The notes under the pieces were generated by a model, which ran no database searches, was not told the DNA's origin, and saw only the letters and a program-made list of their open reading frames with translations. A stretch of 40,681 nucleotides of DNA, from positions 1-40,681 of IMG/VR virus record IMGVR_UViG_3300019889_000005. The stretch is one strand, 5' to 3'. The translations under genes were made by a program, and so were the position numbers. Each line of letters starts with the position of its first letter. Position 1 is the first letter of the stretch. This stretch comes from a virus. Positions 10,960 through 40,681 of the stretch are shown one piece after another.

Positions 10960-11492
10960 AGCACGCGGTTGTATTGTTTAGCATGTTTCCAAGCAATCTT
11001 TGAATAGCCAGCAGCATCCACATCTCCACGGTGCTCATAGTCTGCCAATACTCTGGCCATTATGGCAATCTTAAGAGGCTTTGGCAATGGCGCATAACCA
11101 GCTTGGTACGTTACTTTGTATAGACCACTGCCCAGCAAACGGGGAAATTGCGTGCCTTCAAACGTAAAACCGGTTGTTATAATCGTGCCGGTGGCATCTT
11201 TTACATTGGTAATAGATGCCACCGGCCCATAAGGCAATTCCTGTCTGTTCAGAACTGATATAATAGCCGTTACTGTCCTTGCTATGACAGATATGCCGCA
11301 AGCAACTTCTACCCATTCACGCGCTTCTTTTATGAGATCATCTTCAATGAGATCATCTTCATCCGGGTAATCAACCTTCATATAGGCATTTACCTCCGCT
11401 AAAGTAACAGGCTCCACCACTGGAAGAGCGTAGGTAAATACGACATCAATTACCTTATTACTTCCTTGCAAATTTTCTCTTGCGTGGTGCAT
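10950..11492 (-). CDS. Head-tail connector protein (gp6-like)
   Basis: The pattern VTLAEVNAYMKVDYPDEDDLIEDLIKEAREWVE is typical of gp6-like connectors. The position after the capsid gene also fits. Confidence 0.6.
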   Translation of the reverse strand: MHHARENLQGSNKVIDVVFTYALPVVEPVTLAEVNAYMKVDYPDEDDLIEDDLIKEAREWVEVACGISVIARTVTAIISVLNRQELPYGPVASITNVKDATGTIITTGFTFEGTQFPRLLGSGLYKVTYQAGYAPLPKPLKIAIMARVLADYEHRGDVDAAGYSKIAWKHAKQYNRVLWV

Positions 11493-11646
11493 TGGCTACG
11501 ATCTTTTTTTCCTTGGCAGGCCCAATTAATTTTTTCGCCATAAGCTCTTCCAATCTCTCATCTTCCACAAGGTCTATGACCTCCCCTTTGCTTCGAAATT
11601 GCTTCGTGTTTCTTTCTATGTAGGAAGATAATACTACTACGTGCAT
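11458..11646 (-). CDS. Small hypothetical protein
   Basis: 62-aa ORF between the capsid terminator and the connector gene, with a basic C-terminus. Confidence 0.35.
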   Translation of the reverse strand: MHVVVLSSYIERNTKQFRSKGEVIDLVEDERLEELMAKKLIGPAKEKKIVANAPRKRKFARK

Positions 11647-11654
11647 ACATTCAG

Positions 11655-11690
11655 TTTTTAAAAGTAAGGGGCAGGCACCAATCCTGCCCC
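11655..11690 (-). terminator. Intrinsic terminator downstream of the major capsid gene
   Basis: Stem GGGGCAGG (11668..11675) pairs with CCTGCCCC (11683..11690) across a 7-nt loop. On the minus strand it is followed by TTACTTTTAAAAA. Confidence 0.6.
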
Positions 11691-11718
11691 TCTGGGTTAT
11701 GACGCAGGAAAATGAAAG

Positions 11719-12924
11719 TCAGGTCAATAAACCGAAATCGCCTTTTATGAAGGCATCCGGATAGTATACTACAAATGCTGCTCTCTCTTCCACTACAATA
11801 GTAACCATATTCAATATAGCATTATCCCTATCCTGTTCGAAGAAACGAACAGCTATGCCGGTACGAAGCTTCAATTCGGCTCTGGTGAAATCTCCGATGA
11901 GATATTCATCTTCCAGGATCAACGGGTGCGGAACGATCTGCATGCCCGCAATAGTTAGTGGAGCACCAGCAATCAGTGTAGGGTGGCTGTAAATTCCATC
12001 AGTCGACTTCCTGGTGGCCATGAACATCCAGTTAATTGGATTCACCATTCCCCTGGTAGGAGGCATCCATATGTTCTGTTGCTGGGCAATGGCATCTGCC
12101 AATAAATCCCACGCTTCGGTCGTTAGTACGCCTGCGCTGGGTACGTGAACAGTTGCCTGTGTGATTATACCATCGAAGTTACCTGGAGCGCCAGAACCAC
12201 GCAATACCTGTTGATCTTCTACTTTGAGCACTTCTTCCGGGGCATAGTTCTGCAGATAAGACGTAATACCATCTATATCGTCCAACATCTCCTCTGGCGC
12301 GCGCATATGCGCTGCTATCTTGATAACAGGAGCAATCAACCCGTCAAATTGATACTGTATTTCCGGTTTCAATCCATTCGGTAACACAGAAGTAGGCACT
12401 CCACTTTTCAGAGAAGCTTTGATATAATGATAGGCATTTGATGAAGTGCGACCTATCCGTATCATTGTACGGATGTGAGGCGTTTGAAAAGGCTGGCCGT
12501 AGATGGTACGGTCGAAATCCTGAGCTATTACTTGCCCGGTAGTGTTGTTGGTAAAGGACATATCCTTTTGGCTATTGTAATCCTTATCTTCGAATTCAAT
12601 TGTAGCCCTGGTGCCTTTACCAGCAACGATTTTGTCGTGGTTATCTTTTACAAGATTTTCAATAGCAGATTCGAAGCTTTTGGTTTTCTCTTCGATCTTT
12701 TTCTGCTTGGCCTGCTTTTGGAACTCCTCTGCGAAAGTATTCAAAGCCAGCATATCTGTACCATGCTTGGTCATGATCTCCTTTATTTCCAAAAGCTCAG
12801 CTTTAGTAGCGCCACTATTGACAGCCGTTTCAATGCGGGTATTTATTTCCTGGACACTTGTTTGGCTCTTTTTCTCCATCCGGTCAAGTGCCTCAGATAT
12901 CTGCTGAAGGTTTAAATCTGCCAT
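11719..12924 (-). CDS. Major capsid protein, HK97 fold, with an N-terminal coiled-coil delta/scaffold domain
   Basis: 401 aa. The N-terminal roughly 100 aa are Glu/Lys-rich and helical, and the protease gene lies immediately upstream. Length and pattern are typical of HK97-family capsid proteins. Confidence 0.85.
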   Translation of the reverse strand: MADLNLQQISEALDRMEKKSQTSVQEINTRIETAVNSGATKAELLEIKEIMTKHGTDMLALNTFAEEFQKQAKQKKIEEKTKSFESAIENLVKDNHDKIVAGKGTRATIEFEDKDYNSQKDMSFTNNTTGQVIAQDFDRTIYGQPFQTPHIRTMIRIGRTSSNAYHYIKASLKSGVPTSVLPNGLKPEIQYQFDGLIAPVIKIAAHMRAPEEMLDDIDGITSYLQNYAPEEVLKVEDQQVLRGSGAPGNFDGIITQATVHVPSAGVLTTEAWDLLADAIAQQQNIWMPPTRGMVNPINWMFMATRKSTDGIYSHPTLIAGAPLTIAGMQIVPHPLILEDEYLIGDFTRAELKLRTGIAVRFFEQDRDNAILNMVTIVVEERAAFVVYYPDAFIKGDFGLLT

Positions 12925-12930
12925 AATTAT

Positions 12931-13653
12931 TTAAATGTAGTGATTAGACAATCTTTGTATTTTCTCCATGATCCCACAATCATCCATGCCTACTATTATC
13001 GGCTCCGGTGCTTCTTCCTCAGCGGCCAAAGTGATATCAAATAGATGTTGAGATAACTGTTTTATTTCCAGCATCAGTAGCTCAATTGTTTCGTCTGATG
13101 CAGTAGTAGACTTTATGAACTTCTCCAGGGCTTTTATGCGAATGCTCATACGCTCCAGCGCGTACGCATTATTTGCACCTTTCAGTATTGGCACAAGCGG
13201 AGTGTATTGATTAGCTCCCCACGCAGTTAAGCTGGAGCCTTCCATCATTTTCACTTCCAGCAGCTCATTGCCTTCCTGGATCATCTTCTCCTGAACGGGC
13301 CTGTAGCCATAAGAATGTTCAGTTATCAAACCGCTGTCTGCCATATCTAAGTAATCATCGCCCAGCTTATGTGTACCGATCATGGAGATATAGAACAAAC
13401 CGAAATCATCCTCATTCAATTCTGCTAATTTGCCCAGCGGTTTAGTGGTATCGTGATTGAGAAGATGTTTTATACGGGGCTGCACTGCTCCCGGCCCCTG
13501 CTCAGCTATAGTCTTAGCGAACATACCCTTCCGGCCTATATCGCCATCGTGATCCTTCACATTGAAAGACGTGAAATAACCGGCCGTAGTCCGTTTTTTG
13601 CGGTCTACTTCCTTTAATTCCAGTGATGAGCATTTATATTTATAGATGGGCAT
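12931..13653 (-). CDS. Prohead protease, HK97 (S78) family
   Basis: Motifs read FTSFNVKDHDGDIGRKGMF...LLNHDTTKPLGKL...GLF...ITEHSYGY...LLEVKMMEGSSLT.WGAN. I prefer the ATG at 13653 (MPIYKYK) over the track start at 13716, because a TAGATTTG -7 box sits at 13676..13669. Confidence 0.8.
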   Translation of the reverse strand: MPIYKYKCSSLELKEVDRKKRTTAGYFTSFNVKDHDGDIGRKGMFAKTIAEQGPGAVQPRIKHLLNHDTTKPLGKLAELNEDDFGLFYISMIGTHKLGDDYLDMADSGLITEHSYGYRPVQEKMIQEGNELLEVKMMEGSSLTAWGANQYTPLVPILKGANNAYALERMSIRIKALEKFIKSTTASDETIELLMLEIKQLSQHLFDITLAAEEEAPEPIIVGMDDCGIMEKIQRLSNHYI

Positions 13654-13668
13654 AGCTGTGAAGTTGTA

Positions 13669-13700
13669 CAAATCTACTGATAAAAAATTAACATGCAACA
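13669..13700 (-). promoter_or_regulatory. Candidate Bacteroidota-type promoter for the head-tail operon
   Basis: The minus strand reads gTTGc-N19-TAGATTTG. This is a perfect TAnnTTTG -7 element, 16 nt upstream of the ATG at 13653. Confidence 0.4.
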
Positions 13701-13741
13701 GACGCATATGAGTCAAACAGGGTTAATTTGCTATTTAATAT

Positions 13742-13769
13742 ATACGTGTATATATTAAATGCTTATATT
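13742..13769. promoter_or_regulatory. 28-bp perfect palindrome (13-bp arms, 2-bp spacer) in the divergent intergenic region; candidate operator
   Basis: ATTTAATATATAC-GT-GTATATATTAAAT, read directly. Confidence 0.6.
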
Positions 13770-13783
13770 GCAGAAAACGCATT

Positions 13784-14032
13784 ATGCATATATTAAAATA
13801 CGAAGAAGCAGGCCGAATACTACAGGACTTAAGAGCTATTGATAGCTCTATAATCACATTCGATAAATTGTCAAAACTTAAAGACCCGTTGCAAAATGTA
13901 CATGACGGATTTTTCTTAATAGATAAGCTAGTTAATCTTGGATTATTAGATATGCATGCCCTTATTCAAACGGCTCTCAGTAAATTACTTTTAGCCCAGC
14001 AAGAGCTTTCGACCAAATTCGATAACTTATAA
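13784..14032 (+). CDS. Hypothetical protein (plus-strand island)
   Basis: 82-aa ORF with an ATG start. It is the first gene after the divergent region. Confidence 0.5.
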   Translation: MHILKYEEAGRILQDLRAIDSSIITFDKLSKLKDPLQNVHDGFFLIDKLVNLGLLDMHALIQTALSKLLLAQQELSTKFDNL

Positions 14033-14043
14033 ACCTCTGAATT

Positions 14044-14316
14044 ATGCAATCGGTAGATTTTGAAGGCTCCAACCGCACACTTGGCAAACCTGAAGGCATG
14101 ACAGAAGAACAATGCCGAGCACTGCCTATAAGAGATATTGAACAGATTATTATTAATCCTGAAACGAATGAGTCTACCAAAATACCATTCGTGGTTTCTT
14201 GCTGGTGCCTCACGTTAGTAGAGATTGAAGAATTAGTAAGAACAGGCGTGTTGTGGGTCGGGATAAATGGCTACACGCAGCCGCCTATATTTATCACCAC
14301 CGTTAAACCCTTCTAA
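14044..14316 (+). CDS. Hypothetical protein (plus-strand island)
   Basis: 90-aa ORF, 11 nt after the previous stop. Confidence 0.5.
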   Translation: MQSVDFEGSNRTLGKPEGMTEEQCRALPIRDIEQIIINPETNESTKIPFVVSCWCLTLVEIEELVRTGVLWVGINGYTQPPIFITTVKPF

Positions 14317-14317
14317 G

Positions 14318-14620
14318 ATGATAACCGGCATAGATATAAGTGCCTTAGATATACCCGCCGCAACACTCAGCAGTATAGCCAAATGTCTTGAAAATAAGTC
14401 TCTGTTTGGTCTTACTAATGGCAAAGCTTATACGTTATTCAAGACAGATAAGCTAGAAGTTGTGTGGATTGATCGAAATGGCAGGTACACACACGTCAAA
14501 TGCCCAACCGCCGATCAATTTGTCGATCTGATGAAGATATCACTTCTCAGCCGGAGAACATATTTAAGTGCTAAACGTGTTAATGAATTATTTCTACACG
14601 CCAAACTGTTACAAAAATGA
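14318..14620 (+). CDS. Hypothetical protein (plus-strand island)
   Basis: The ATG at 14318 lies 1 nt after the previous TAA. The track version 14267..14620 starts earlier in the same frame. Confidence 0.45.
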   Translation: MITGIDISALDIPAATLSSIAKCLENKSLFGLTNGKAYTLFKTDKLEVVWIDRNGRYTHVKCPTADQFVDLMKISLLSRRTYLSAKRVNELFLHAKLLQK

Positions 14621-14661
14621 GATTAATAACTGAAGATTATTCATATGCTTAAACATAAAAT

Positions 14662-15027
14662 ATGCTAATAGAGAATATACTTATCGAGCAAGAATGGCCG
14701 CACCTAGAAATAAAAAACTATTACGCAGTAGAGCTGAATTTTAAGAATGATTTAACACATAATATAGGTACAGTAAGAGTATTTAAAAATGGATTCGGCA
14801 TTTGTGGCAATTTTGATCTAAACGATGGTTACGAAGAAGCTTTTCTATTGCTGTTTCCTTCCATAGGCTATAGAATTATAGCCGGAGACTATGATGATTC
14901 AGGTAAATGCATAAATATCAGACAGGGCGAAATAATCAGCATCGGCCTATGTAGCGAACCTAACCTTGATCCTACAATTAAATGCTTAGGCGATCAAATA
15001 CTAGACAATGAAAAAAACGAAAGCTAA
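14662..15027 (+). CDS. Hypothetical protein (plus-strand island)
   Basis: 121-aa ORF. Confidence 0.5.
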   Translation: MLIENILIEQEWPHLEIKNYYAVELNFKNDLTHNIGTVRVFKNGFGICGNFDLNDGYEEAFLLLFPSIGYRIIAGDYDDSGKCINIRQGEIISIGLCSEPNLDPTIKCLGDQILDNEKNES

Positions 15028-15187
15028 ACGGGGCAGACCTAAAACCAAATTTAGAGTGCCATTAGTGTTCCAAATAGATACCTCTGTTGCTGAGGTACTT
15101 CCTTACATAAACCGCAGCGATCTGGTAAACGAGCTGTTAGGTAGCAATTCCATGATTAAGAAAATGATTGATCAAAATAAAAAATAA
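15008..15187 (+). CDS. Small basic protein, possibly ribbon-helix-helix DNA binding
   Basis: 59-aa ORF below the track cutoff: MKKTKAKRGRPKTKFRVPLVFQIDTSVAEVLPYINRSDLVNELL... This gives a basic arm, a beta strand and two helices. Confidence 0.3.
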   Translation: MKKTKAKRGRPKTKFRVPLVFQIDTSVAEVLPYINRSDLVNELLGSNSMIKKMIDQNKK

Positions 15188-15354
15188 TGGTAGGGGCAGT
15201 TTATATAAGATATCTATTTTCCGATGGCACTACAATTGGTGCTGCGGCATGGGATACAACCAATTTTTGGATACAATGTGTTATGCTGCATAATAGCGGC
15301 CCGATTGTTTGTAAACTCCACATAAAACTTAAACCGTGCAAAAATACTATCTGA
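15187..15354 (+). CDS. Small hypothetical protein
   Basis: 55-aa ORF whose ATG overlaps the previous TAA (TAATG). Confidence 0.25.
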   Translation: MVGAVYIRYLFSDGTTIGAAAWDTTNFWIQCVMLHNSGPIVCKLHIKLKPCKNTI

Positions 15355-15620
15355 TCACGATGGGCCGTGAAGGCAAAGCTTATACCTTTCCGCACGCTGC
15401 TGCTGATACAAAGAGTCCTACCAAGATATTCATTGACTTAATGAGCACGGAACCTGAACCTTGGACATGGTCACTACTGCTTGCTTTAGAAATAAGTTTT
15501 GACGATTACAGGGACTATTGTAATTTTTTAAAAGAGTATGAAAAAATACAGGATCATAAAGAGTTATCGAATTTGCAATGCTTACTGGATATACCATCTC
15601 CAACAGCAAATAAAAACTAA
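15336..15620 (+). CDS. Hypothetical protein (plus-strand island)
   Basis: 94-aa ORF from a GTG. There is an alternative ATG at 15360 (MGREGKAY...). Confidence 0.4.
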   Translation: MQKYYLITMGREGKAYTFPHAAADTKSPTKIFIDLMSTEPEPWTWSLLLALEISFDDYRDYCNFLKEYEKIQDHKELSNLQCLLDIPSPTANKN

Positions 15621-15840
15621 AAAGAAGAATTTGTTTGGTAGGTGTATTCCTGATGTTTGGGAGTATTGCGGCACAGGATTTTCATGCGCTTCAACCGCTG
15701 ATGTGGACATAGTAAGAAGCTGGATGATAAATTTAGACGCGCACCTATATATTGAAAACCCATTAACAAAGGAATTATCATTGCCCGGGCCGTTTGAACT
15801 AAATGCCAATGATCCTAGTCAATCCGGCCGATGCTCTTGA
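15538..15840 (+). CDS. Hypothetical protein, the last ORF of the island (uncertain)
   Basis: 100-aa ORF that overlaps the previous ORF and the convergent 3' end of the Mu-F-like gene. Confidence 0.25.
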   Translation: MKKYRIIKSYRICNAYWIYHLQQQIKTKKKNLFGRCIPDVWEYCGTGFSCASTADVDIVRSWMINLDAHLYIENPLTKELSLPGPFELNANDPSQSGRCS

Positions 15841-16674
15841 TGGCACAACACTGGTAAACTCATTCCTTATAAGTCTACCATTACTATCCCTGACAGCCTC
15901 ATGCGCATGAGTGCAACGGCATTGTATGATATTGCCCTTAGCGCCTTTTGGATCGCCAGGATAATCTATGAGATCGCCATTTACATTGAAGGGGTGTGTA
16001 ATTGGCTCTGTCACGCCATCCATCTTATAATGATCGAATTTGCTCACAGGCAGTCTGCGCGTCCTGAAATCCAGAGAGCTTATCCACACCTTCCTTAATA
16101 ACAATCCTGTCTGCAATGCGGCTCCCTGCGCTGCTGCATTCAATATACCTGTAATCTCTGTGCGAGCGATCGCTCTGGCACGATAAGGATTGATCGAATT
16201 GTCCAATATTAGTTGTATCATATCATCAATGCTGAGCTGCTGCTCAAGACCTGCGGCTATCTGTCTGCGAATCAATTCCTTCGTCGTGTCAGTAATATCT
16301 ACTACTTTATTGGCAGTGTAGGTTCTGATATAGTCATTAACCAGAGATAGCCAGAAATCGTTTGTGGTGCCAAAGAACTTGCGGCGCGTCAGCTCCTTAC
16401 CATATTCGTCCTCTAACTGGTTGGTGACCGTATTGGCATATACTGGAAATATGGTGGTATATAGCTTTATCAATACGGCCCGGATAGGATCGCCTTGTAT
16501 TAGGCTTTCTAAGCGCATCACGGCATCTTCCAAGCCATACAGCCTTATGTGCGCCACAAAGGGAGAAAGCTGCTGTTTTAAGGCCGCCTGAATGCGCTCT
16601 GTCCACGCGTTCTCTAACGTGATATGATATACATGAAATTGCCGCCAATAGGCTGTTCGTTTACGCGCGTTCAT
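15799..16674 (-). CDS. Head morphogenesis protein, Phage Mu F / SPP1 gp7 family
   Basis: Motifs read RARAIARTEITGILNAAAQ...KVWISSLDFRTRR...HYKMDG...PGDPKGAKGNIIQCRC. Confidence 0.85.
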   Translation of the reverse strand: MNARKRTAYWRQFHVYHITLENAWTERIQAALKQQLSPFVAHIRLYGLEDAVMRLESLIQGDPIRAVLIKLYTTIFPVYANTVTNQLEDEYGKELTRRKFFGTTNDFWLSLVNDYIRTYTANKVVDITDTTKELIRRQIAAGLEQQLSIDDMIQLILDNSINPYRARAIARTEITGILNAAAQGAALQTGLLLRKVWISSLDFRTRRLPVSKFDHYKMDGVTEPITHPFNVNGDLIDYPGDPKGAKGNIIQCRCTHAHEAVRDSNGRLIRNEFTSVVPSRASAGLTRIIGI

Positions 16675-16676
16675 AT

Positions 16677-17042
16677 TTAATGGTTCATTGCTTCTCTATC
16701 TGCTGGTGGTTCAGGTCGAACGGGCATCGGCGGCGTAAGACATTCTACCTGTATCGGCGGTATTGTCGAAAGAGCACGCTCTACCTGTATCGGCAACAAT
16801 ACGATTTCGGATTTTTGAGTACTGCCAATTACTTCGTCAGGTGAGACTATTGTACCGCCTGACGAAAATCTATGGGGTTCGGTAGCCGATACGATTCCAA
16901 TACTTATCATATGCCCACACCATATAAGTAATTCACGTTTACATTGCCGTTGCTTCTTTTGTGCCTCCGCTCTTTTACGCGGACACGGATTATTGGTAGG
17001 CATATATTTTTCAAGTATTGCCTGTAGCTTATCTGTACTCAT
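16677..17042 (-). CDS. Hypothetical protein
   Basis: 121-aa ORF with an internal LPIQVE / PPIQVE repeat. Confidence 0.4.
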   Translation of the reverse strand: MSTDKLQAILEKYMPTNNPCPRKRAEAQKKQRQCKRELLIWCGHMISIGIVSATEPHRFSSGGTIVSPDEVIGSTQKSEIVLLPIQVERALSTIPPIQVECLTPPMPVRPEPPADREAMNH

Positions 17043-18256
17043 TTTAGATGCTCTTTATAATGTTTTGGATTCGGTTGGTGAAATCTGTAGTAGTGAAATA
17101 GATATACTCCCTGCATGATACCTATTTTACCTTTGTGCTGAATCAGCAATTTACGACAAAAAGTGGTATCAAACGCTATGTCGTTTTCCTGGAACTTGAT
17201 TCTTTCCCAGGTCTTCTTCGGCATAAGCATCAACAGTCCTGCTATGCCGCCCATTGCCTGCGTAACAACCGCATAGTTGTTATTGTATAGTTCTTCAGCT
17301 ATCCCATAGTGATTTAATATATTGGGATCATCGCTGAGCTTTCCGTTGTAGCATTGCTGGGCAGATGCCAGTCTGTTTGTTAAACAACCCAGCAAATCGT
17401 ATTTATTTCCCTGCTCCGCAATGATATCCTCCAGTTGCTTTTTTGTGTGTGGATGCAACCACATGCTGTCGTGATCAGTGATACAAATCCAGTCATTATC
17501 TGGCACTATACTGCAATAGTGGTTATACTCCTTGCCTATGTTTTTATCGGCTGCAAACGGCTGAAAGTACCAAATGCGGGGCTTATCTACGTTGCCCGCA
17601 CTCGCATGCTGTTTTATTCGAATGAACTGCTGGAAAACAGCATAATCCAGTACCTTAGGTTTTAAACCGGTTAAATGCAACGCATACGGCAATGATATCT
17701 GATCTCTGACCGAATGCGCTGCCAGTTCTGCATACCAAAAATCGCATAGGGCATTTACAGTCGGTGTATTGGCCCGCAACATGATTCCCGTCTCATACAT
17801 ACCGTTATTTGAAGGGTATCCGGCATCCCTATATTTTTCCTGCTGCTCTATTACAATGCTTCTCGTATCTTTCCCCAACTTAATAACTTGCGCTACTTCT
17901 TCATATACGCATTTACGTCTATGGTGCCTTTTGAGAAGCATTCCTTCGCCTCTGTAATGCGTGTCTATCAACTCATTAAAATCACGCATTTGTACCGTAG
18001 AGCCGTCCATGTAAACAGTATAGTCGAATTCTGGCAAATACTCATGCGCAAGTATTTTTATACGCCGCTGTATTCGCTGTGCAGTCAAACCTTCATGCCC
18101 GGGCCTGCGATCTATGATCCTGATTTCCCACGGAGAGCAGCTTAGCGCCAGATCATCGGTAAAGCATATATATTCCCAGCCCTTGCTTATTATAAACGGC
18201 TCTTTGAGGGTATCATAACCCCCTGTAATTACTGTATAGACTGCTTTTCTAGCCAT
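17039..18256 (-). CDS. Two-domain glycosyltransferase: an N-terminal DUF616 / TOD1-MUCI70-like domain plus a C-terminal GT-A-like domain
   Basis: N-terminal motifs: AVYTVITGGYDTLKEP...EYICFTDD...WEIR...RIQRRIKILAHEYLPEFDYTVYMDG...KCVYEEV...GYPSNNGMYETGIMLR...FWYAEL...SVRDQISLPYAL. The C-terminal half contains WICITDHDSMW (DxD-like). Confidence 0.75.
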   Translation of the reverse strand: MARKAVYTVITGGYDTLKEPFIISKGWEYICFTDDLALSCSPWEIRIIDRRPGHEGLTAQRIQRRIKILAHEYLPEFDYTVYMDGSTVQMRDFNELIDTHYRGEGMLLKRHHRRKCVYEEVAQVIKLGKDTRSIVIEQQEKYRDAGYPSNNGMYETGIMLRANTPTVNALCDFWYAELAAHSVRDQISLPYALHLTGLKPKVLDYAVFQQFIRIKQHASAGNVDKPRIWYFQPFAADKNIGKEYNHYCSIVPDNDWICITDHDSMWLHPHTKKQLEDIIAEQGNKYDLLGCLTNRLASAQQCYNGKLSDDPNILNHYGIAEELYNNNYAVVTQAMGGIAGLLMLMPKKTWERIKFQENDIAFDTTFCRKLLIQHKGKIGIMQGVYLFHYYRFHQPNPKHYKEHLK

Positions 18257-18786
18257 TCTTTATAAGCATTATAGTTTAAGAGGGAATGCACGGGTTTTAA
18301 TTCTAGTTTTTGTGCCACCGGTTCTATTATCCCTGTTCCATAATCATCTAAATAAGTAGTGCATATACCTGGATTATTCACCACTATTTGATACCAAGCC
18401 CTATACACATCACCACACCACTGTTTAGTCCTGCGTGGCCACAATGTCGACTCGTAGCAGGGCGGATTTATATCATGCACAATGATTGTTCCGGCTACCC
18501 TTAAACAATAGAGGCTATTCTTAACATCTCTCAACACTTGTTCATATTCATGCAGCCCGTCAACAAATATTATATCGAATTTGTGCTCCGGATTATTATG
18601 GATAAAGTAATCGTCGGAAGTGCAGGCAAAAAAATTACTATCCTTGTATGGCGGATTTATATCCACGCCGAATTTCCTGCGGCATCTGACCCTTTCAAAA
18701 TTATCACCGTCTCCCAGGCCTATCTCCAAATACGATCTGTAGTGATTCTTATCAATTAGATGCTGTATAAGCTGTGTGTGATTCAT
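18229..18786 (-). CDS. Class I SAM-dependent methyltransferase (the type found in polysaccharide and glycan modification clusters)
   Basis: Motifs: YLEIGLGDGDNF (motif I), FGVDINP, KFDIIFVDGLHEYEQVLRDVKNSL..L..AGTIIVHD. Confidence 0.75.
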   Translation of the reverse strand: MNHTQLIQHLIDKNHYRSYLEIGLGDGDNFERVRCRRKFGVDINPPYKDSNFFACTSDDYFIHNNPEHKFDIIFVDGLHEYEQVLRDVKNSLYCLRVAGTIIVHDINPPCYESTLWPRRTKQWCGDVYRAWYQIVVNNPGICTTYLDDYGTGIIEPVAQKLELKPVHSLLNYNAYKEWLEKQSIQ

Positions 18787-19034
18787 TCCTTGACAATTAC
18801 TGGTTTTAATAATGTGAATTCGCCATTCGATTCTTGTTTAACAAATTGCTCAAAATATGCTGACTCAGAAAGTCCGGGTATATCAAACCGCAGTATTGCG
18901 ATACCATTATATTTATCCGAAAATGTAGATACGTCTTCGCATCTGCCATAAGTATCAAATATCAGGTCTAATACTTTAATTGCTGTATCCAGGTCACTCC
19001 GGACAAAATCATTACTGATTACCAAAAGGGCCAT
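18783..19034 (-). CDS. Hypothetical protein
   Basis: 83-aa ORF coupled by a 4-nt overlap to the methyltransferase gene. Confidence 0.4.
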   Translation of the reverse strand: MALLVISNDFVRSDLDTAIKVLDLIFDTYGRCEDVSTFSDKYNGIAILRFDIPGLSESAYFEQFVKQESNGEFTLLKPVIVKE

Positions 19035-19038
19035 AGCA

Positions 19039-19296
19039 CTAAGGTTTAGGACGTTCGTTTACCACTTCTACCATTTCTAGTTCTATTGTAGCTGAACACG
19101 ATCTATCGGGCCAGTTATCAGTAATAACAATCATGCCGACATTTGGTACCAATTTACCTTCCGGTGTAAATAGTTCATAGTATCCCATCTGCGTGTTGTA
19201 CCATAGCTTCATTCTGCTGTCGATAGGTTCGGGAGGATCAATCATTTTATCGTGTTCGATATCCTCAGGATTAAAATAGTCATTAATATCTGGCAT
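19039..19296 (-). CDS. Hypothetical protein
   Basis: 85-aa ORF downstream of the portal gene. Confidence 0.4.
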   Translation of the reverse strand: MPDINDYFNPEDIEHDKMIDPPEPIDSRMKLWYNTQMGYYELFTPEGKLVPNVGMIVITDNWPDRSCSATIELEMVEVVNERPKP

Positions 19297-19317: not shown

Positions 19318-20772
19318 TTATTCAATATCATTATCTTCTTCAAGATCAGGGGCCGGATCATCTATTTGTTGTGTGCTCATGTCATCCATAGGTATAAGAT
19401 TGGATGGCATCCACACACGATCCATATTAGGGTCGGTACTTAGCGGCTCACCCATTATAGACAGTTTACGATTGGGCGTAAGCCAGTATGCCCGTTCCAG
19501 GTAATCAACCTGATCCTTCTTATTCTCTTCCAATTCAGAGAATGCGGATACATCAAAGTCCAACACTGTGTTCTTTCCCTTCAGACCCCAATCCGTCTGA
19601 AATTTCCGGTTCATATTGTCTCGCTCACTGATCAGTGCTGGCAATGAGCATCTAAGCGTTAAGGCCCGTTCGCCTGAATTGGCATTGGCCTGTATCTTAT
19701 TGTCAGGATCATTCATTAGCTGAGAAGGTACTTGCCATATATTACACAGCATGCGCATATTCCACTTCTCAGATTCTATAATATTCAAGTCTACAGGGGA
19801 CATACGCACCCGTGTATATTTCCAGGGACTATTGAGTATTGCTATCTCACCAGCTCTTCTCGAACCTCCTTTTATCAACGCCTCTATCCTTTCCTTGGTG
19901 GCGCCAAGCTGCTCCCACGTAAGCTCTTTCAAATACTCAATATCCGTGCTATCTGGCGATAAAATGCCATCAGCACCACCATTTTGGTATGTGGCGATAC
20001 CTGTCAGAAGACCTTCCTTTACGTTCTGCATTCTGATCTTGGCAGCTCTCACAGGACTCAATCCGTATAACTGGCTACCGATGGCATCCCAATCGGGGTT
20101 ATAGTATTTCTCATGCATTACTTCTTCCTTCTCAAACTGTACCAGTATGCCTTCGTGGTAGGTATACGATGCCGCACGCAGGGGAAATTGCCCGTTTGTT
20201 TTTATCAACATACATTGGCTGGCAAGATTGTTTAACTCCAACGGTAAACCTTTAGACAATGGCGCTTCTGAGATCATGGCCCAGCGAAATTTATCACCCG
20301 TTATCAATTTGAACCCTACGCCCTCTTCCACCATATCAGCCCAGGTCTGCGTCTCATTAGGGTATTTAATTAGCTCTGCTAGTCTGCCTTGTGGATTATA
20401 TGCTTCCAGCGCCTTATTTCGCAGCCCCATCATGTCCTTATAGTCCTTCACAATCCTTTCTAAACCTACACTCTCCTCCATCTTATCATAGGCGATAGAA
20501 CACATATTCTTCAGACGGCTCATGTAAGCATTATATGCCTTTTCATCCTTGATCGTGTACCAGCCCCAGGTTGGTACTTTCACTTTATTGGTAATGAGGT
20601 TGATAATGGAATAAACAATGTCATTACCTATGTATCCCTCCCTGACATAGGTCTTTTTCTTGTCCGAGTACAAAACTGTCTCGGCAGCGCCCAGGTAGGG
20701 ATAAGATATCCTGCTGGGTGGCACAATTGCTTTCTTACGAAAAGGATTAAGACGCTGAAATATATTTGTCAT
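19318..20772 (-). CDS. Portal protein
   Basis: 484 aa with a 4-nt overlap to the TerL stop and an acidic C-terminus. Size and position are typical of portals. Confidence 0.8.
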   Translation of the reverse strand: MTNIFQRLNPFRKKAIVPPSRISYPYLGAAETVLYSDKKKTYVREGYIGNDIVYSIINLITNKVKVPTWGWYTIKDEKAYNAYMSRLKNMCSIAYDKMEESVGLERIVKDYKDMMGLRNKALEAYNPQGRLAELIKYPNETQTWADMVEEGVGFKLITGDKFRWAMISEAPLSKGLPLELNNLASQCMLIKTNGQFPLRAASYTYHEGILVQFEKEEVMHEKYYNPDWDAIGSQLYGLSPVRAAKIRMQNVKEGLLTGIATYQNGGADGILSPDSTDIEYLKELTWEQLGATKERIEALIKGGSRRAGEIAILNSPWKYTRVRMSPVDLNIIESEKWNMRMLCNIWQVPSQLMNDPDNKIQANANSGERALTLRCSLPALISERDNMNRKFQTDWGLKGKNTVLDFDVSAFSELEENKKDQVDYLERAYWLTPNRKLSIMGEPLSTDPNMDRVWMPSNLIPMDDMSTQQIDDPAPDLEEDNDIE

Positions 20773-34739: not shown

Positions 34740-34969
34740 TTATACAGGCGTTTTAATTCTGAATCGATATATTTTTTCAACTTTTTTACTGCGTTATTTC
34801 TCTCTTCTATCGCGTCAGCAACATACCGGATGCTTTTTCCAACAGAAAGTCTACCGTTATCGATCAGTACAACATAGACAGTTTTTGTTTTACGGCCTGG
34901 ATTTGTTTCAGCCGAATCGAATATATCGTATCCACGGTACACATCTATGATATTTGGGTTCTTGTTCAT
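34736..34969 (-). CDS. Hypothetical protein
   Basis: 77-aa ORF with an ATGA overlap to the regulator gene. Confidence 0.45.
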   Translation of the reverse strand: MNKNPNIIDVYRGYDIFDSAETNPGRKTKTVYVVLIDNGRLSVGKSIRYVADAIEERNNAVKKLKKYIDSELKRLYK

Positions 34970-35673
34970 GTTATGTTATATGGTTTTTTATCGACCATCC
35001 CCCAGCCTTTGTTATTTATAGTCTTTATGTGGATGCCAGTGCCTTTTAAATATCTTCTTATCCTGCAAATTTGAGTGTCAAGGGAGCGGCTATGGAAATA
35101 ATCATCACTATCGCCATAAATGATCTGCATCATCTCCTTCCGGTATACGATCCTGTTGTGAGCGGTAAAGAACACTTCTAATACCTTGCTCTCACTCTTC
35201 GTCAGTGTAAGTGTCGTGCCGTCAGGAAATGTTAGTACCAAGCCTTTCAGCATGCAGTTTTTGAAATTGAATGTTGTCTGATTATGCTTGCCAGTTACGA
35301 GCCACTTCTCACATACCCTGATTTTGCAGACTATTATTTCGTACCCGCAAGTCATGCCCATGTGCATATCGATCCCAGCATCATACAGTGCCAGCCTGGA
35401 TTTCTCTGATTGTTCATAAGAAACACACAGTATCGGTATCATCACATTCTTCAATCTTAGCCTGCGTAACATCTCTATATCAGTCGAAGTAAATGTGGGC
35501 CTGTAAAATACGGCTATTTGGCAGCTATCGATGTTATCGTACACGCCTATTGCATGCTTATATAAATAGCTAGTCAATTCCGATTTTATGCTTCTATCTG
35601 AAGAATTTATATATACGAGCAGAGCAAGTTGTTCGTTTTTCATACAGGAATCTTTTTTTTGAACCGTTTTCAT
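34966..35673 (-). CDS. OmpR/PhoB-type winged-helix transcription regulator with a degenerate, receiver-like N-terminal domain
   Basis: The C-terminus TLTLTKSESKVLEVFFTAHNRIVYRKEMMQIIYG....HSRSLDTQICRIRRYL.....IKTINNKGWGM follows the Trans_reg_C pattern. I prefer the ATG at 35673 (ATGA overlap) over the track start at 35697. Confidence 0.7.
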   Translation of the reverse strand: MKTVQKKDSCMKNEQLALLVYINSSDRSIKSELTSYLYKHAIGVYDNIDSCQIAVFYRPTFTSTDIEMLRRLRLKNVMIPILCVSYEQSEKSRLALYDAGIDMHMGMTCGYEIIVCKIRVCEKWLVTGKHNQTTFNFKNCMLKGLVLTFPDGTTLTLTKSESKVLEVFFTAHNRIVYRKEMMQIIYGDSDDYFHSRSLDTQICRIRRYLKGTGIHIKTINNKGWGMVDKKPYNIT

Positions 35674-35966
35674 AGTCCTATTATTTTTATCCGGCACAGC
35701 CCCGCTCTCTTCATTCTTCGTACCACAGTAAACGGTTTATGATAGATTTGTTTTTCCACTATTTCAGCCCAGCGCCACATATATGCTTCAAAAGCTTCAG
35801 TATCCTCTAGCATTTCTGTAGCTAGTCTCCTAAAATATTTATATTGTTCTGAATAAGCTCTAAAAGATATGACTCCGGTAATTAAATTCCTTAGAAAGTT
35901 ATCACCATCCTGATCATAAAATTTGACAGTTATATTTTTAAGCAGCTTGGTGTTTTTAAGTCTCAC
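35670..35966 (-). CDS. Hypothetical protein
   Basis: 98-aa ORF with a GTG start that overlaps the previous stop (GTGA). Confidence 0.4.
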   Translation of the reverse strand: MRLKNTKLLKNITVKFYDQDGDNFLRNLITGVISFRAYSEQYKYFRRLATEMLEDTEAFEAYMWRWAEIVEKQIYHKPFTVVRRMKRAGLCRIKIIGL

Positions 35967-39988: not shown

Positions 39989-40681
39989 TTAAAGGACTGC
40001 TGCCGATGTGTATAAAGATATGATAAACCAAGTCGTACCATTGCACTGTATTGTCATAGAGCTGTATTGAGCTGTTAAAGTTTTACCGGCCGCGTTCCCG
40101 TCTATTGTCTCAGATGCAGCGCCATCCACAATAACATCATTTGCTGCAGCACTTATCTTTTTTATAACATAAATCCTACCTGTACATGTAGCTGCGGCTG
40201 GAAGTGTTATTGTTACTGATCCTGAATTATTGACCAATATGGTATGATGCTCGCCGATGGTCGTATTACCTGTAACTGTTGTAATAGAACGTCCGTTCGA
40301 TCCAACAACCTCAAATTTTGAATTGGGGGTTGTGCCATTCACAATAAAATTACCGACCCCGGTAATACTCAATGTTGCATTTGGATTGTTGATATCAAAA
40401 CGGGTTCCCAGGTGCTGGAAATTCACATCTGATGCGGCTGCTCTTACAAATCTTGCTATAGGCGTAGTGCCGGAAAAAGTACCACTACCTGAAATGTTAA
40501 AATTCGCTGACTGAGCAGTGGTTGTGTTTCTTATGTATGCTGTACTGGTTCCGTCATCCTTAGTAAATGCGGATGCGTTTAAACCATCCAGCAGATCAGC
40601 ATCTAACCCGGAACCCACACCATCATTGCCGCTATGCCATACGGTATTGCCGTTAACGAATAATTTTGCCGTGTTCCCTGG
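39989..40681 (-). CDS. C-terminal part of the same tailspike ORF (unique part 39989..40554). The joined protein is about 922 aa.
   Basis: Position 1 equals position 40555, and both are first codon positions of the same minus frame. The track ORF 39989..40618 merely starts at an internal GTG. The frame is open to the window end and stops at 39989. Confidence 0.85.
   Translation of the reverse strand, partial: PGNTAKLFVNGNTVWHSGNDGVGSGLDADLLDGLNASAFTKDDGTSTAYIRNTTTAQSANFNISGSGTFSGTTPIARFVRAAASDVNFQHLGTRFDINNPNATLSITGVGNFIVNGTTPNSKFEVVGSNGRSITTVTGNTTIGEHHTILVNNSGSVTITLPAAATCTGRIYVIKKISAAANDVIVDGAASETIDGNAAGKTLTAQYSSMTIQCNGTTWFIISLYTSAAVL
40555..40681. repeat. Right copy of the 127-bp direct terminal repeat
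   Basis: Identical to 1..127. Confidence 0.95.

Follow-up and report, generated by a model that had tools for sequence, protein, structure and literature searches.

What do a glycosyltransferase and a methyltransferase accomplish in the midst of a phage head-gene array? The question is raised by a viral DNA of 40,681 nucleotides (IMG/VR record IMGVR_UViG_3300019889_000005, analyzed over its whole length and hereafter called the window), in which a preliminary description made from the sequence alone had noted two such genes between those for the portal and a MuF-like head protein and had set glycosylation of the virion against modification of the host surface. The coordinates given there for both open reading frames (ORFs) were confirmed on the minus strand, where all features given coordinates here are located. 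A SAM methyltransferase (MTase) of 185 amino acids is encoded at positions 18229..18786 and a glycosyltransferase (GT) of 405 amino acids with two GT-A domains at 17039..18256, the last 28 nt of the MTase gene doubling as the first 28 of the GT gene (18229..18256), an overlap that suggests translational coupling. The portal gene (19318..20772; PF04860, E 2e-27; phrog_12) lies upstream, separated from the pair by two small genes of unassigned function, an 85-aa ORF immediately following it (19039..19296) and an 83-aa ORF devoid of family matches (18783..19034), the stop codon of which overlaps the MTase start by 4 nt. On the other side, the start of a 121-aa ORF of unassigned function (16677..17042), whose N-terminus is kept in one relative (L086; tblastn, E 8e-5), overlaps the GT stop by 4 nt and is followed, 2 nt past its end, by the gene for the MuF-like head morphogenesis protein (15799..16674; phrog_2468, E 5e-36). 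The prohead protease (12931..13716; phrog_80, E 4e-23) and the major capsid protein (MCP), a candidate acceptor (11719..12924; phrog_10, E 3e-37), complete the head genes considered here. From TerS to MuF the array is co-directional and gap-free, and the MTase and GT genes are both inside it. The pair had been described as overlapping structural genes; it is indeed co-oriented with them and involved in small overlaps, but the genes it touches are the 83-aa and 121-aa ORFs rather than those for the portal and MuF.

A scan for sigma-70 promoters and terminators revealed no enrichment, the pair having no promoter or terminator signal of its own, and the one match to a Bacteroidetes-type promoter, inside the MTase gene, is at chance level (3 found vs 1.6 expected). 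NCBIfam yielded zero matches for the GT, the MTase or their neighbors. Maximum hydropathy over 19 residues reached only 1.43 in the GT and 0.85 in the MTase, and no transmembrane segment is thus predicted in either protein. No integrase was found among the scanned ORFs of the window.

The N-terminal half of the GT (~aa 1-222; 17591..18256) belongs to the DUF616/TOD1-MUCI70 type of GT-A domain, residues 66-196 matching PF04765 (TOD1_MUCI70) with an E value of 2.3e-14 and a score of 53.8 bits against a gathering cutoff of 21.4; the same family was matched by 25 of 26 GT homologues. Invariant in these 26 homologues are Y14-D15, Y82xD84, E120 and R184-D185-Q186, the last of these in the stretch VRDQISLP. 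The C-terminal half (~aa 228-405; 17042..17575) is a GT2-like GT-A domain that matches phrog_14179 (E 1e-48) and lies outside any Pfam family, its matches to GT2-family Pfam models being weak; it retains an invariant D261xD263 in the stretch ITDHDS across the 26 homologues, as well as T293-N294-R295, Y385, H388 and Y390-R391. Over its full length the protein matches phrog_26101 (E 6e-84). Each half is also known as a separate gene, the C-terminal half occurring in many phages as a standalone gene of ~180 aa. The AlphaFold2 model (pLDDT 91.8) comprises two Rossmann-like halves, and its best Foldseek matches in the PDB are GT6 and the tandem GT-A enzymes COLGALT1, LARGE1, LH3 and the E. coli K4 chondroitin polymerase (K4CP). 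The tandem enzymes likewise carry two GT-A domains per chain and were matched with E values of 1.6e-8 to 2e-6, but their identity to the window GT is 8-9% and the TM scores are ~0.3, low because the domain arrangement differs; they do not imply a polymerase or protein-hydroxylysine activity. The N-terminal domain matches single-domain DUF616 proteins of giant viruses (BFVD) with a TM of 0.85 over 227 aa, while by sequence, whether single or as a profile, the GT matched nothing in the PDB. As judged from family matches and the model, then, the protein is a tandem GT-A protein whose halves are a DUF616 domain and a GT2-like domain carrying an invariant DxD, just as had been proposed, and the motifs quoted in the preliminary description are real and conserved. 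No biochemically characterized bacterial or phage DUF616 member was found in the literature. One apparent mention of DUF616, in an antiphage-defence preprint, proved to be DUF6161.

The MTase, earlier placed among class I SAM methyltransferases, can be assigned more precisely. It matches a single Pfam family, PF13578 (Methyltransf_24; E 1.1e-8, 36.3 bits vs a cutoff of 26.3), and contains the SAM motif LEIGLGDG, in which E21 and G23 of LEIGxGxG are invariant, and I22 nearly so, in a 17-sequence alignment. D76, G77, L78, H79 and H104-D105 are invariant as well; among the putative metal-ligand positions this includes D76 and D105, while the third (N107 in the window) varies across the family. 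The AlphaFold2 model (pLDDT 90.2) has norbelladine, caffeoyl-CoA (CCoA) and catechol O-methyltransferases and SafC as its best Foldseek neighbors (E 8e-9, TM 0.63), and a profile search of the PDB returned 3ntv (E 1.7e-4). The structural comparison that had been recommended for both proteins thus gave confident models with glycosyltransferase and O-methyltransferase neighbors. We take PDB entry 6g7d to be the mycobacterial mannoside 1-O-methyltransferase MeT1. With the Mg-dependent O-methyltransferases (CCoAOMT, catechol OMT, SafC, TylF-type) the window protein shares the fold, the SAM motif, an Asp after strand 4 and a His-Asp after strand 5; it differs from them in being much shorter (185 aa) and in lacking a clearly conserved third metal ligand. 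In sequence and model it resembles this Mg-dependent type, which makes O-methylation its candidate activity. Relatives of the MTase are labeled "DNA methyltransferase" in phrog_27561 and in Cellulophaga phage records. That assignment was rejected: no DNA-methyltransferase Pfam family was matched, and neither motif IV nor PCQ is conserved. The NPPY at residues 44-47 is off the motif IV position and is not conserved, D42 and P43 alone being kept, and the conserved H-D-x-N-P of the family is unlike motif IV.

Coupling of the two enzymes extends to other phages. The MTase and GT genes overlap by 19-32 nt in three relatives (L001, L086 and L088) and are fused into a single ORF in two others (P0014 and P0015); other DUF616 proteins carry a fused Methyltransf_23, and in 37 IMG/VR loci a gene of this different methyltransferase family lies two genes upstream. 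When loci with a full-length GT were dereplicated at 60% identity, yielding 20 lineages, a SAM methyltransferase usually adjoined the two-domain GT, and a gene for portal, MuF, protease or MCP was located at most 3 kb from it in 16 lineages; in L084 the fusion is flanked by the adaptor and head-closure genes and overlaps its neighbors by 4 nt at either end, which brings head or connector placement to 17/20. The survey of synteny called for earlier thus places the cassette beside head or connector genes in most lineages, at insertion points that vary (portal|MuF, MuF|protease, portal|protease, MCP|adaptor and adaptor|head-closure). Exceptions are L016, where the GT lies between lysis-like and replication genes, and L062, where no head genes occur within 10 kb; in L074 and L077 the two GT domains are split and reside inside larger glycan clusters. 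Identity to the window is 32-38% for the GT where it is 27-29% for the portal and 26-30% for the MCP, the two-domain GT equaling or exceeding portal and capsid in conservation. An MCP-based search for relatives retrieved only 3. Relatives were recovered from metagenomes of marine, freshwater, soil and gut origin.

In cellular genomes, the two-domain form was found in only 4 loci among 185,579 species genomes, a count obtained with N-terminal patterns only, such that cellular proteins with just the C-terminal half fall outside it; at least 2 of the 4 are prophage head modules. Integrated prophages account for at least two relatives, and lysogenic conversion is therefore still conceivable for the GT family. 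In one of them, a Chitinophaga prophage (L083), the portal-MuF interval holds the GT contiguous with WDGH and near Acb2/Tad1-like and RLIG1 genes; because genes of anti-defence type reside there, the interval is an accessory-gene slot, and position in it carries little weight by itself. Most cellular DUF616 relatives are flanked by polysaccharide genes (GT2, GT1/GT4, epimerases/dehydratases, Polysacc_synt and TupA), and the two-domain module is also found within polysaccharide-synthase-like multi-GT proteins of 1000-1800 aa with GT4 and MTase domains. In 10 loci of Lachnospiraceae, flagellin genes lie within 10 kb of cellular DUF616 relatives. Genes for flagellin glycosylation usually reside in flagellin islands, and this proximity may reflect a cytoplasmic protein glycosylation system. 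Reverse-strand accessory islands adjoin MuF in the window and in L086 and L088, and pairs formed by the C-terminal half and a GT2-like protein are found at the border of a DNA-methylase/replication block in L063 and L069.

Three known systems help to interpret the locus. Mycobacteriophage Corndog (cluster O), with a cassette of the actinobacteriophage Corndog/Che8 type, is reported to glycosylate its virions (Freeman et al. 2023, PMC10527164, cited second-hand). The Corndog genes run from the portal (gp34) through an MTase (gp35; TylF and PF13578), GTs (gp36-38) and an S78 protease (gp39) to the MCP (gp41), with overlaps of 4-8 nt. Like the window, Corndog combines an HK97-type head module with an MTase followed by GTs between portal and protease/MCP and with small overlaps, and gp35 and the window MTase both match PF13578, the TylF match being Corndog's. 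Corndog differs in having three GT-A-type domains (gp36-38) as opposed to two fused in one protein, one of them DUF616, and in infecting Mycobacterium as opposed to a Gram-negative Bacteroidota host; moreover, virion glycans are, according to the literature, demonstrated for Corndog, whereas the window cassette is known from its genes. Alignment of the window GT and MTase profiles with Corndog gp35-38 gave hhalign probabilities of 0.06-2.5%, which are not significant, and orthology with the mycobacteriophage cassette was rejected on this basis. A tblastn search of 50,697 phage records placed no mycobacteriophage among the 10 organism groups named (there were 7 further groups). The parallel with mycobacteriophages drawn earlier thus extends to slot and gene order in Corndog but not to detectable homology of GT or MTase.

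The capsid N-glycans of chlorovirus PBCV-1 are built by the second system, the GT-GT-2-O-MTase protein A064R (PMC7826918). It too is virus-encoded and joins two GT activities to a sugar O-methyltransferase, an architecture mirrored by the MTase-GT-GT fusions of P0014 and P0015. The domain order is reversed, the virus is a eukaryotic giant virus and the acceptor glycan is on Vp54. The third comprises true homologues. Cellulophaga phages phi18:1, phi12:1 and phi17:1 (Helsingorvirus) already have the pair annotated, as "DNA methylase" and glycosyltransferase; gp40 and gp41 of phi18:1 overlap like the window genes, full-length identity of the GT is 38%, and the pair is located in phi18:1 between MuF and protease, one gene-block further downstream than in the window. 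A 2025 study of phi18:1, which is not known to be temperate, discussed gp41 as a possible LPS or DNA modification enzyme (PMC11946311). The preliminary description had been unaware of such a system in Bacteroidota phages; the annotations in Cellulophaga phages qualify this for the genes, while in the papers searched virion glycosylation was neither reported nor proposed for these phages.

Taken together, the evidence on the pair best supports glycosylation of the virion, to which we give slightly less than an even chance. The two proteins would form a soluble cytoplasmic glycan-building module, co-translated with the head genes. The GT would be bifunctional, and we infer that each of its GT-A domains most likely transfers one sugar from a nucleotide-sugar donor, the glycan consequently growing by two residues, one after the other; the domains may also alternate, as those of LARGE1 or K4CP do. 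The MTase, presumably metal- and SAM-dependent, most likely methylates a hydroxyl of the glycan built by the GT. The most likely acceptor would be a virion structural protein, the capsid first, and progeny particles would then bear an O-methylated glycan coat, made by a system analogous, and presumably not homologous, to the cluster O mycobacteriophage cassette and to PBCV-1 A064R. Domain identities, gene overlap, fusion, conservation and head-module location are observations, whereas donor sugars, expression timing, acceptor and benefit belong to the interpretation. Speaking for virion glycosylation are the enzyme matches, the coupling of MTase and GT, the head placement, the evolutionary constraint, the restriction of the two-domain form to phages, the precedents of Corndog and A064R, the flagellin genes near DUF616 relatives in Lachnospiraceae, the lack of transmembrane segments and the presence of the pair in phi18:1. 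Speaking against it are the placement exceptions, the accessory slot in L083, the DUF616 proteins of polysaccharide loci, the multi-GT proteins, the prophages and the missing acceptor signature, as neither Ser/Thr-rich or extended termini nor collagen-like repeats were found in the MCP, tube, portal and tail proteins. Of the interpretation offered initially, the enzyme assignments and the head-gene placement stand; the GT shows no detectable homology to those of Corndog, and the interval has turned out to serve as an accessory slot in a prophage.

The same enzymes could act elsewhere. The serious rival is that they modify host envelope glycans from the cytoplasmic side, where undecaprenyl-linked precursors destined for LPS O-antigen, capsule or Bacteroidota protein O-glycans would be their substrates, altering the receptor and so causing superinfection exclusion or fewer losses of progeny on cell debris; we regard this as unlikely, yet deserving of weight. 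Envelope modification is the reading favored in the phi18:1 paper (PMC11946311). It is in keeping with the polysaccharide-synthesis neighborhoods of most cellular DUF616 homologues, with the occurrence of the two-domain module in giant multi-GT proteins bearing GT4 and MTase domains and with the relatives carried by integrated Chitinophaga prophages; furthermore, the tail fibre of the window looks, from its sequence, like a beta-helix depolymerase, making a glycan receptor plausible. Typical conversion genes encode membrane proteins of the Gtr type and lie near att or an integrase. The location of the pair is unlike theirs, embedded as it is in a late packaging and head array with overlaps of 4-28 nt and no separate promoter or terminator signal. 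In contrast to the membrane transferases of GtrABC serotype conversion, which usually sit by the integration module, neither protein has a transmembrane segment and no integrase was found in the scanned ORFs. Nor does envelope modification sit well with the presence of the pair in phi18:1, or with the near absence of the two-domain form from cellular glycan loci.

It is less probable still that the pair acts on some other cytoplasmic target (a host protein, a defence signaling nucleotide or a free oligosaccharide) in host take-over or anti-defence, the head interval merely tolerating accessory genes. The WDGH, Acb2/Tad1-like and RLIG1 neighbors of the GT in L083, the reverse-strand islands by MuF and the pairs bordering the DNA-methylase/replication block of L063 and L069 favor this idea. 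Accessory anti-defence genes usually turn over fast, whereas the pair has been kept over long divergence with an identity above that of portal or MCP, co-oriented with its neighbors and overlapping them, and we know of no anti-defence mechanism using a GT-A enzyme and an O-methyltransferase. Modification of DNA, the GT glycosylating a hydroxylated base before packaging and the MTase acting as a DNA methylase, appears highly improbable. It would agree with the "DNA methyltransferase" labels of phrog_27561 and the Cellulophaga records, but the MTase matches Methyltransf_24 only, has small-molecule O-methyltransferases as structural neighbors and carries an NPPY neither conserved nor at the motif IV position. 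The T4 DNA glucosyltransferases are GT-B enzymes, unlike the GT-A protein of the window. According to one source (PMC13326640), sugar transfer to DNA can occur late, shortly before packaging, and DNA glycosylation systems need an enzyme of the thymidylate-synthase family to make the hydroxylated base. PHROGs and Pfam searches of the scanned window ORFs revealed no thymidylate-synthase homologue, no other source of 5hmC, 5hmU or 5hoC and no nucleotide-metabolism genes, and DNA glycosylation is unlikely for want of the thymidylate-synthase homologue.

Returning to virion glycosylation, we tentatively extend it to a broader proposal, which we consider a real possibility rather than a probability: that Bacteroidota siphophages, including the Cellulophaga Helsingorviruses, give their capsids a coat of O-methylated glycan by means of a phage-restricted DUF616 and GT2-like double GT and a TylF-like MTase, independently of the mycobacteriophage system and from the same portal-to-protease slot. 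With both phi18:1 and its host available as cultures, the proposal lends itself to a direct test. The propagated label "DNA methyltransferase" can be corrected to a sugar-type O-methyltransferase, and a functional setting is given to DUF616 and to a glycosyltransferase family of ~180 aa without a Pfam model. The reports of tailed-phage virion glycosylation that we found deal with actinobacteriophages, whose recognition by antibodies it is said to weaken. If the proposal is true, the filling of that head-module slot by an unrelated cassette in phages of Gram-negative Bacteroidota, with no homology detected, would point to convergent evolution, and DUF616 would gain its first biochemical role outside plants. 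Virion glycosylation would then have arisen convergently and be widespread among environmental tailed phages, and a glycan coat would appear to be a general trait open to selection, which may bear on adsorption to particles or mucus, on stability and on evasion of grazers or immunity.

The two ends of the window coincide, nucleotides 1-127 being identical to 40555-40681, which indicates that the assembly, of ~40,554 bp, is circular or terminally redundant. The record is a siphophage genome of ~40.55 kb, complete and circularly permuted, and a tail-fibre ORF spans its junction, running from 2212 to 1 and resuming from 40618 to 39989. The large fibre or spike protein that it encodes (1-2212 and 39989-40618, minus strand) bears an N-terminal lipoprotein-like signal sequence, MRYILILILTGILLTLCG, unusual for a tail fibre, and repeats resembling those of a beta-helix depolymerase. 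Nearly all genes lie on the minus strand, in the order replication genes, TerS, TerL, portal (19318-20772), ORFs of 85 and 83 aa, a 185-aa methyltransferase (MTase; 18229-18786), a 405-aa glycosyltransferase (GT; 17039-18256), a 121-aa ORF and MuF (15799-16674), followed, beyond a small plus-strand island, by prohead protease, MCP, and the connector and tail genes. One early protein, of 243 aa (34966-35697, minus strand), contains a winged-helix DNA-binding domain of the OmpR/PhoB type (Trans_reg_C, E 2e-11). The island, a block of small genes at 13784-15840 that splits the head module between MuF and protease, has reverse-strand counterparts at the equivalent site in two relatives carrying the pair (L086 and L088) and in Cellulophaga phage phi18:1. 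From TerS to MuF the successive intergenic spacings are -44, -4, +21, +4, -4, -28, -4 and +2 nt. The preliminary description had placed a GT and a SAM-methyltransferase in the head-morphogenesis module at 17039-18786; the coordinates, lengths, quoted motifs and MTase/GT overlap that it reported were all correct. Its statement that the pair overlaps structural genes stands as regards co-orientation and 4-nt overlaps, but the genes overlapped are the 83-aa and 121-aa ORFs, not portal or MuF.

As proposed from the sequence, the N-terminal half of GT is a DUF616/TOD1-MUCI70 domain, residues 66-196 matching PF04765 (E 2.3e-14). Full-length GT is matched by phrog_26101, and residues 228-405 by a separate family, phrog_14179. 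When 26 full-length homologues, 33-60% identical, were aligned, invariant residues appeared in both halves: Y14-D15, Y82xD84, E120 and R184-D185-Q186 in the N-terminal one, and D261xD263, T293-N294-R295, Y385, H388 and Y390-R391 in the C-terminal one. D261xD263 is the DxD-like motif in ITDHDS of the suspected second GT-A-like half. The C-terminal half matched no Pfam family, GT2-type Pfam matches being weak, and is common as a separate gene of ~180 aa. The AlphaFold2 model of GT (pLDDT 91.8) found as its top PDB matches enzymes with two GT-A domains (COLGALT1, LARGE1, LH3 and K4 chondroitin polymerase), then single-domain GT6, and in a viral structure library its N-terminal half aligned with single-domain DUF616 proteins of giant viruses (TM 0.85). 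Together with the lack of any predicted membrane segment in GT, the domain matches and the model indicate a soluble, probably bifunctional GT-A/GT-A enzyme.

The sole Pfam match of MTase, PF13578 (Methyltransf_24), agrees with its earlier assignment to the class I SAM methyltransferases. Its model (pLDDT 90.2) was nearest to norbelladine 4'-OMT, CCoAOMT, SafC and catechol OMT (E ~1e-8, TM 0.6), all Mg-dependent O-methyltransferases, and a profile of the family retrieved the CCoAOMT-like structure 3ntv (E 1.7e-4). LEIG, FxDGLH and HD are kept across the family. Sequence and structure thereby point to an O-methyltransferase rather than a DNA methylase. The label "DNA methyltransferase" borne by phrog_27561 and by Cellulophaga phage records in GenBank (NC_021790 gp40 and related) is not supported, because the NPPY at residues 44-47 is neither conserved in the family nor at the motif IV position, MTase matches no DNA-methylase family, and its likeness is to O-methyltransferases.

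The two genes are closely coupled. Their overlap is kept in relatives (19 nt in phi18:1, 31 nt in L086, 32 nt in L088), and in P0014 and P0015 they are fused into one protein of 578-579 aa; fusions of Methyltransf_23 with other DUF616 proteins also exist. The largest IMG/VR group has, in place of the Methyltransf_24 enzyme, one of the Methyltransf_23 family two genes upstream of GT (37 loci). L073 and L075, whose MCP is 60% identical to that of the window, have in the same place a variant cassette made up of a Methyltransf_24-like enzyme, a GT2/GT7C-like protein of 480 aa and a standalone C-terminal half. That methyltransferases which are not orthologous recur as partners speaks for a methylated glycan as the product. 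In 39 IMG/VR loci (e.g. L030, 1658-2305) the gene for a conserved protein of 216 aa, which matches no family, follows the Methyltransf_23 gene and lies directly upstream of GT; it may belong to the cassette as well.

Ninety GT-carrying loci from IMG/VR, public assemblies and genomes were grouped into 27 clusters at 60% GT identity. A portal, MuF, protease or MCP gene lay within 3 kb of full-length two-domain GT in 16 of 20 clusters; as a rough guide that we inferred, a gene placed at random in a genome of 40 kb has a ~30% chance of lying so close to the head block, the lineages not being fully independent. The insertion point depends on lineage (portal|MuF, MuF|protease, portal|protease, MCP|adaptor or adaptor|head-closure), falling among head or connector genes in 17 of 20 lineages; in the seventeenth, L084, the fused MTase-GT gene sits between head-tail adaptor and head-closure genes with a 4-nt overlap on each side. 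The original observation is confirmed, and well beyond chance. GT is 32-38% identical to that of the window, against 27-29% for portal and 26-30% for MCP at the same loci; GT is therefore constrained, and these values fit long-term retention beside head genes.

Across 185,579 species genomes the two-domain form turned up at only four loci, of which at least L090 (Chitinophaga) and L092 are head modules of prophages; a further 75 loci match the N-terminal DUF616 region only. The neighbours of single-domain cellular DUF616 genes are ordinary polysaccharide-synthesis genes, and 10 Lachnospiraceae/Butyrivibrio loci (L098, L102, L103, L114, L118, L120, L132, L134, L135 and L136) have one or two flagellin genes within 10 kb. 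Flagellin islands being the usual site of flagellin-glycosylation genes, this suggests a role in such islands and hints at cytoplasmic protein glycosylation. A HMMER scan of 1.84 billion representatives returned 384 clusters at E<=1e-30, some with the domain order swapped (C-terminal half first) and some in which the two-domain module is part of a 1000-1800-aa protein with GT2, GT4 and Methyltransf_23/11 domains. Proteins with these arrangements are P0203, P0237, P0247, P0266 and P0289, and P0195, P0201 and P0222. GT matched 146 phage records, 106 of them from Escherichia phages; every Escherichia match listed is through the C-terminal half only. In Escherichia phage nieznany (Phapecoctavirus; L002, 4998-8142) a 187-aa C-half gene heads four consecutive glycosyltransferase genes beside primase/helicase. 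Elsewhere the standalone C-terminal half accompanies a 480-510-aa GT2/GT7C-like protein, 2-3 kb upstream of terminase and beside DNA methylases in L063 (8233-10546) and L069 (8293-10546), and a few kb downstream of an SPP1-type portal in L172 (6553-8537).

With regard to known systems, mycobacteriophage Corndog shares the layout of the window: portal gp34, a TylF/Methyltransf_24 MTase gp35, three GTs gp36-38, S78 protease gp39 and MCP gp41, with small overlaps. The large IMG/VR group, in which portal, MTase, an unknown gene, GT, protease and MCP follow one another, comes closer still. The Corndog enzymes are reported to act on capsid and tail tube as substrates of glycosylation (PMC11600133 and PMC12363180, each with reference to Freeman et al. 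2023). The mycobacteriophage likeness raised in the preliminary description holds for gene order; profile comparison detected no homology of the pair to Corndog proteins, and the resemblance is an analogy. Chlorovirus A064R, two GTs plus a 2-O-methyltransferase, builds a capsid glycan (PMC7826918) and is similar in architecture to the fused P0014 and P0015. The pair has true homologues, gp40 and gp41, in the Cellulophaga phages phi18:1, phi12:1 and phi17:1. In phi18:1, gp40 has been called a DNA methyltransferase, one of four counted, and gp41 suggested to act in LPS modification or DNA protection (PMC11946311, 2025). In the records of these phages the notes on portal, MuF and MCP begin "part of structural virion", and the notes on two other structural proteins add that experimental MS/MS is the basis; gp40 and gp41 carry no such structural note, which fits non-structural enzymes.

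The interpretation first given is partly supported: the proposed enzymology proved sound, and virion glycosylation is the leading hypothesis, unproven, that we favour tentatively. It best fits the conserved placement in the head module, the coupling of translation, the phage restriction of the two-domain form and the Corndog parallel, and is further favoured by the presence of the pair in a phage not known to be temperate; against it count the exceptions to the placement rule (L016, L062, L074 and L077) and the failure to find an acceptor signature in the structural proteins. That the pair modifies host envelope glycans is supported by cellular DUF616 contexts and prophage relatives, but is the less likely reading, fitting poorly with its embedding in the late operon and its lack of membrane segments. 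Another cytoplasmic or anti-defence target is improbable, and is retained on account of the Chitinophaga sp. MM2321 prophage (L083), in which genes of the WDGH-domain, Acb2/Tad1-hairpin (sponges of the anti-CBASS/Thoeris type) and RLIG1-like kinds share the portal-MuF interval (11209-14143) with GT, so that this interval serves that lineage as a general slot for accessory genes. Modification of DNA is very hard to credit, since MTase is not of DNA-MTase type and the ORFs scanned with PHROGs and Pfam include no homologue of thymidylate synthase, which all known sugar-on-pyrimidine pathways need according to PMC13326640.

The pair itself is not new, being already annotated in Helsingorvirus genomes. 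The literature searched gave no account of MTase and GT as one conserved functional unit, of the O-methyltransferase type of MTase, of a widespread cassette tied to the head module, or of its mirroring the mycobacteriophage cassette without homology. A direct test is feasible in the phi18:1/Cellulophaga baltica system.
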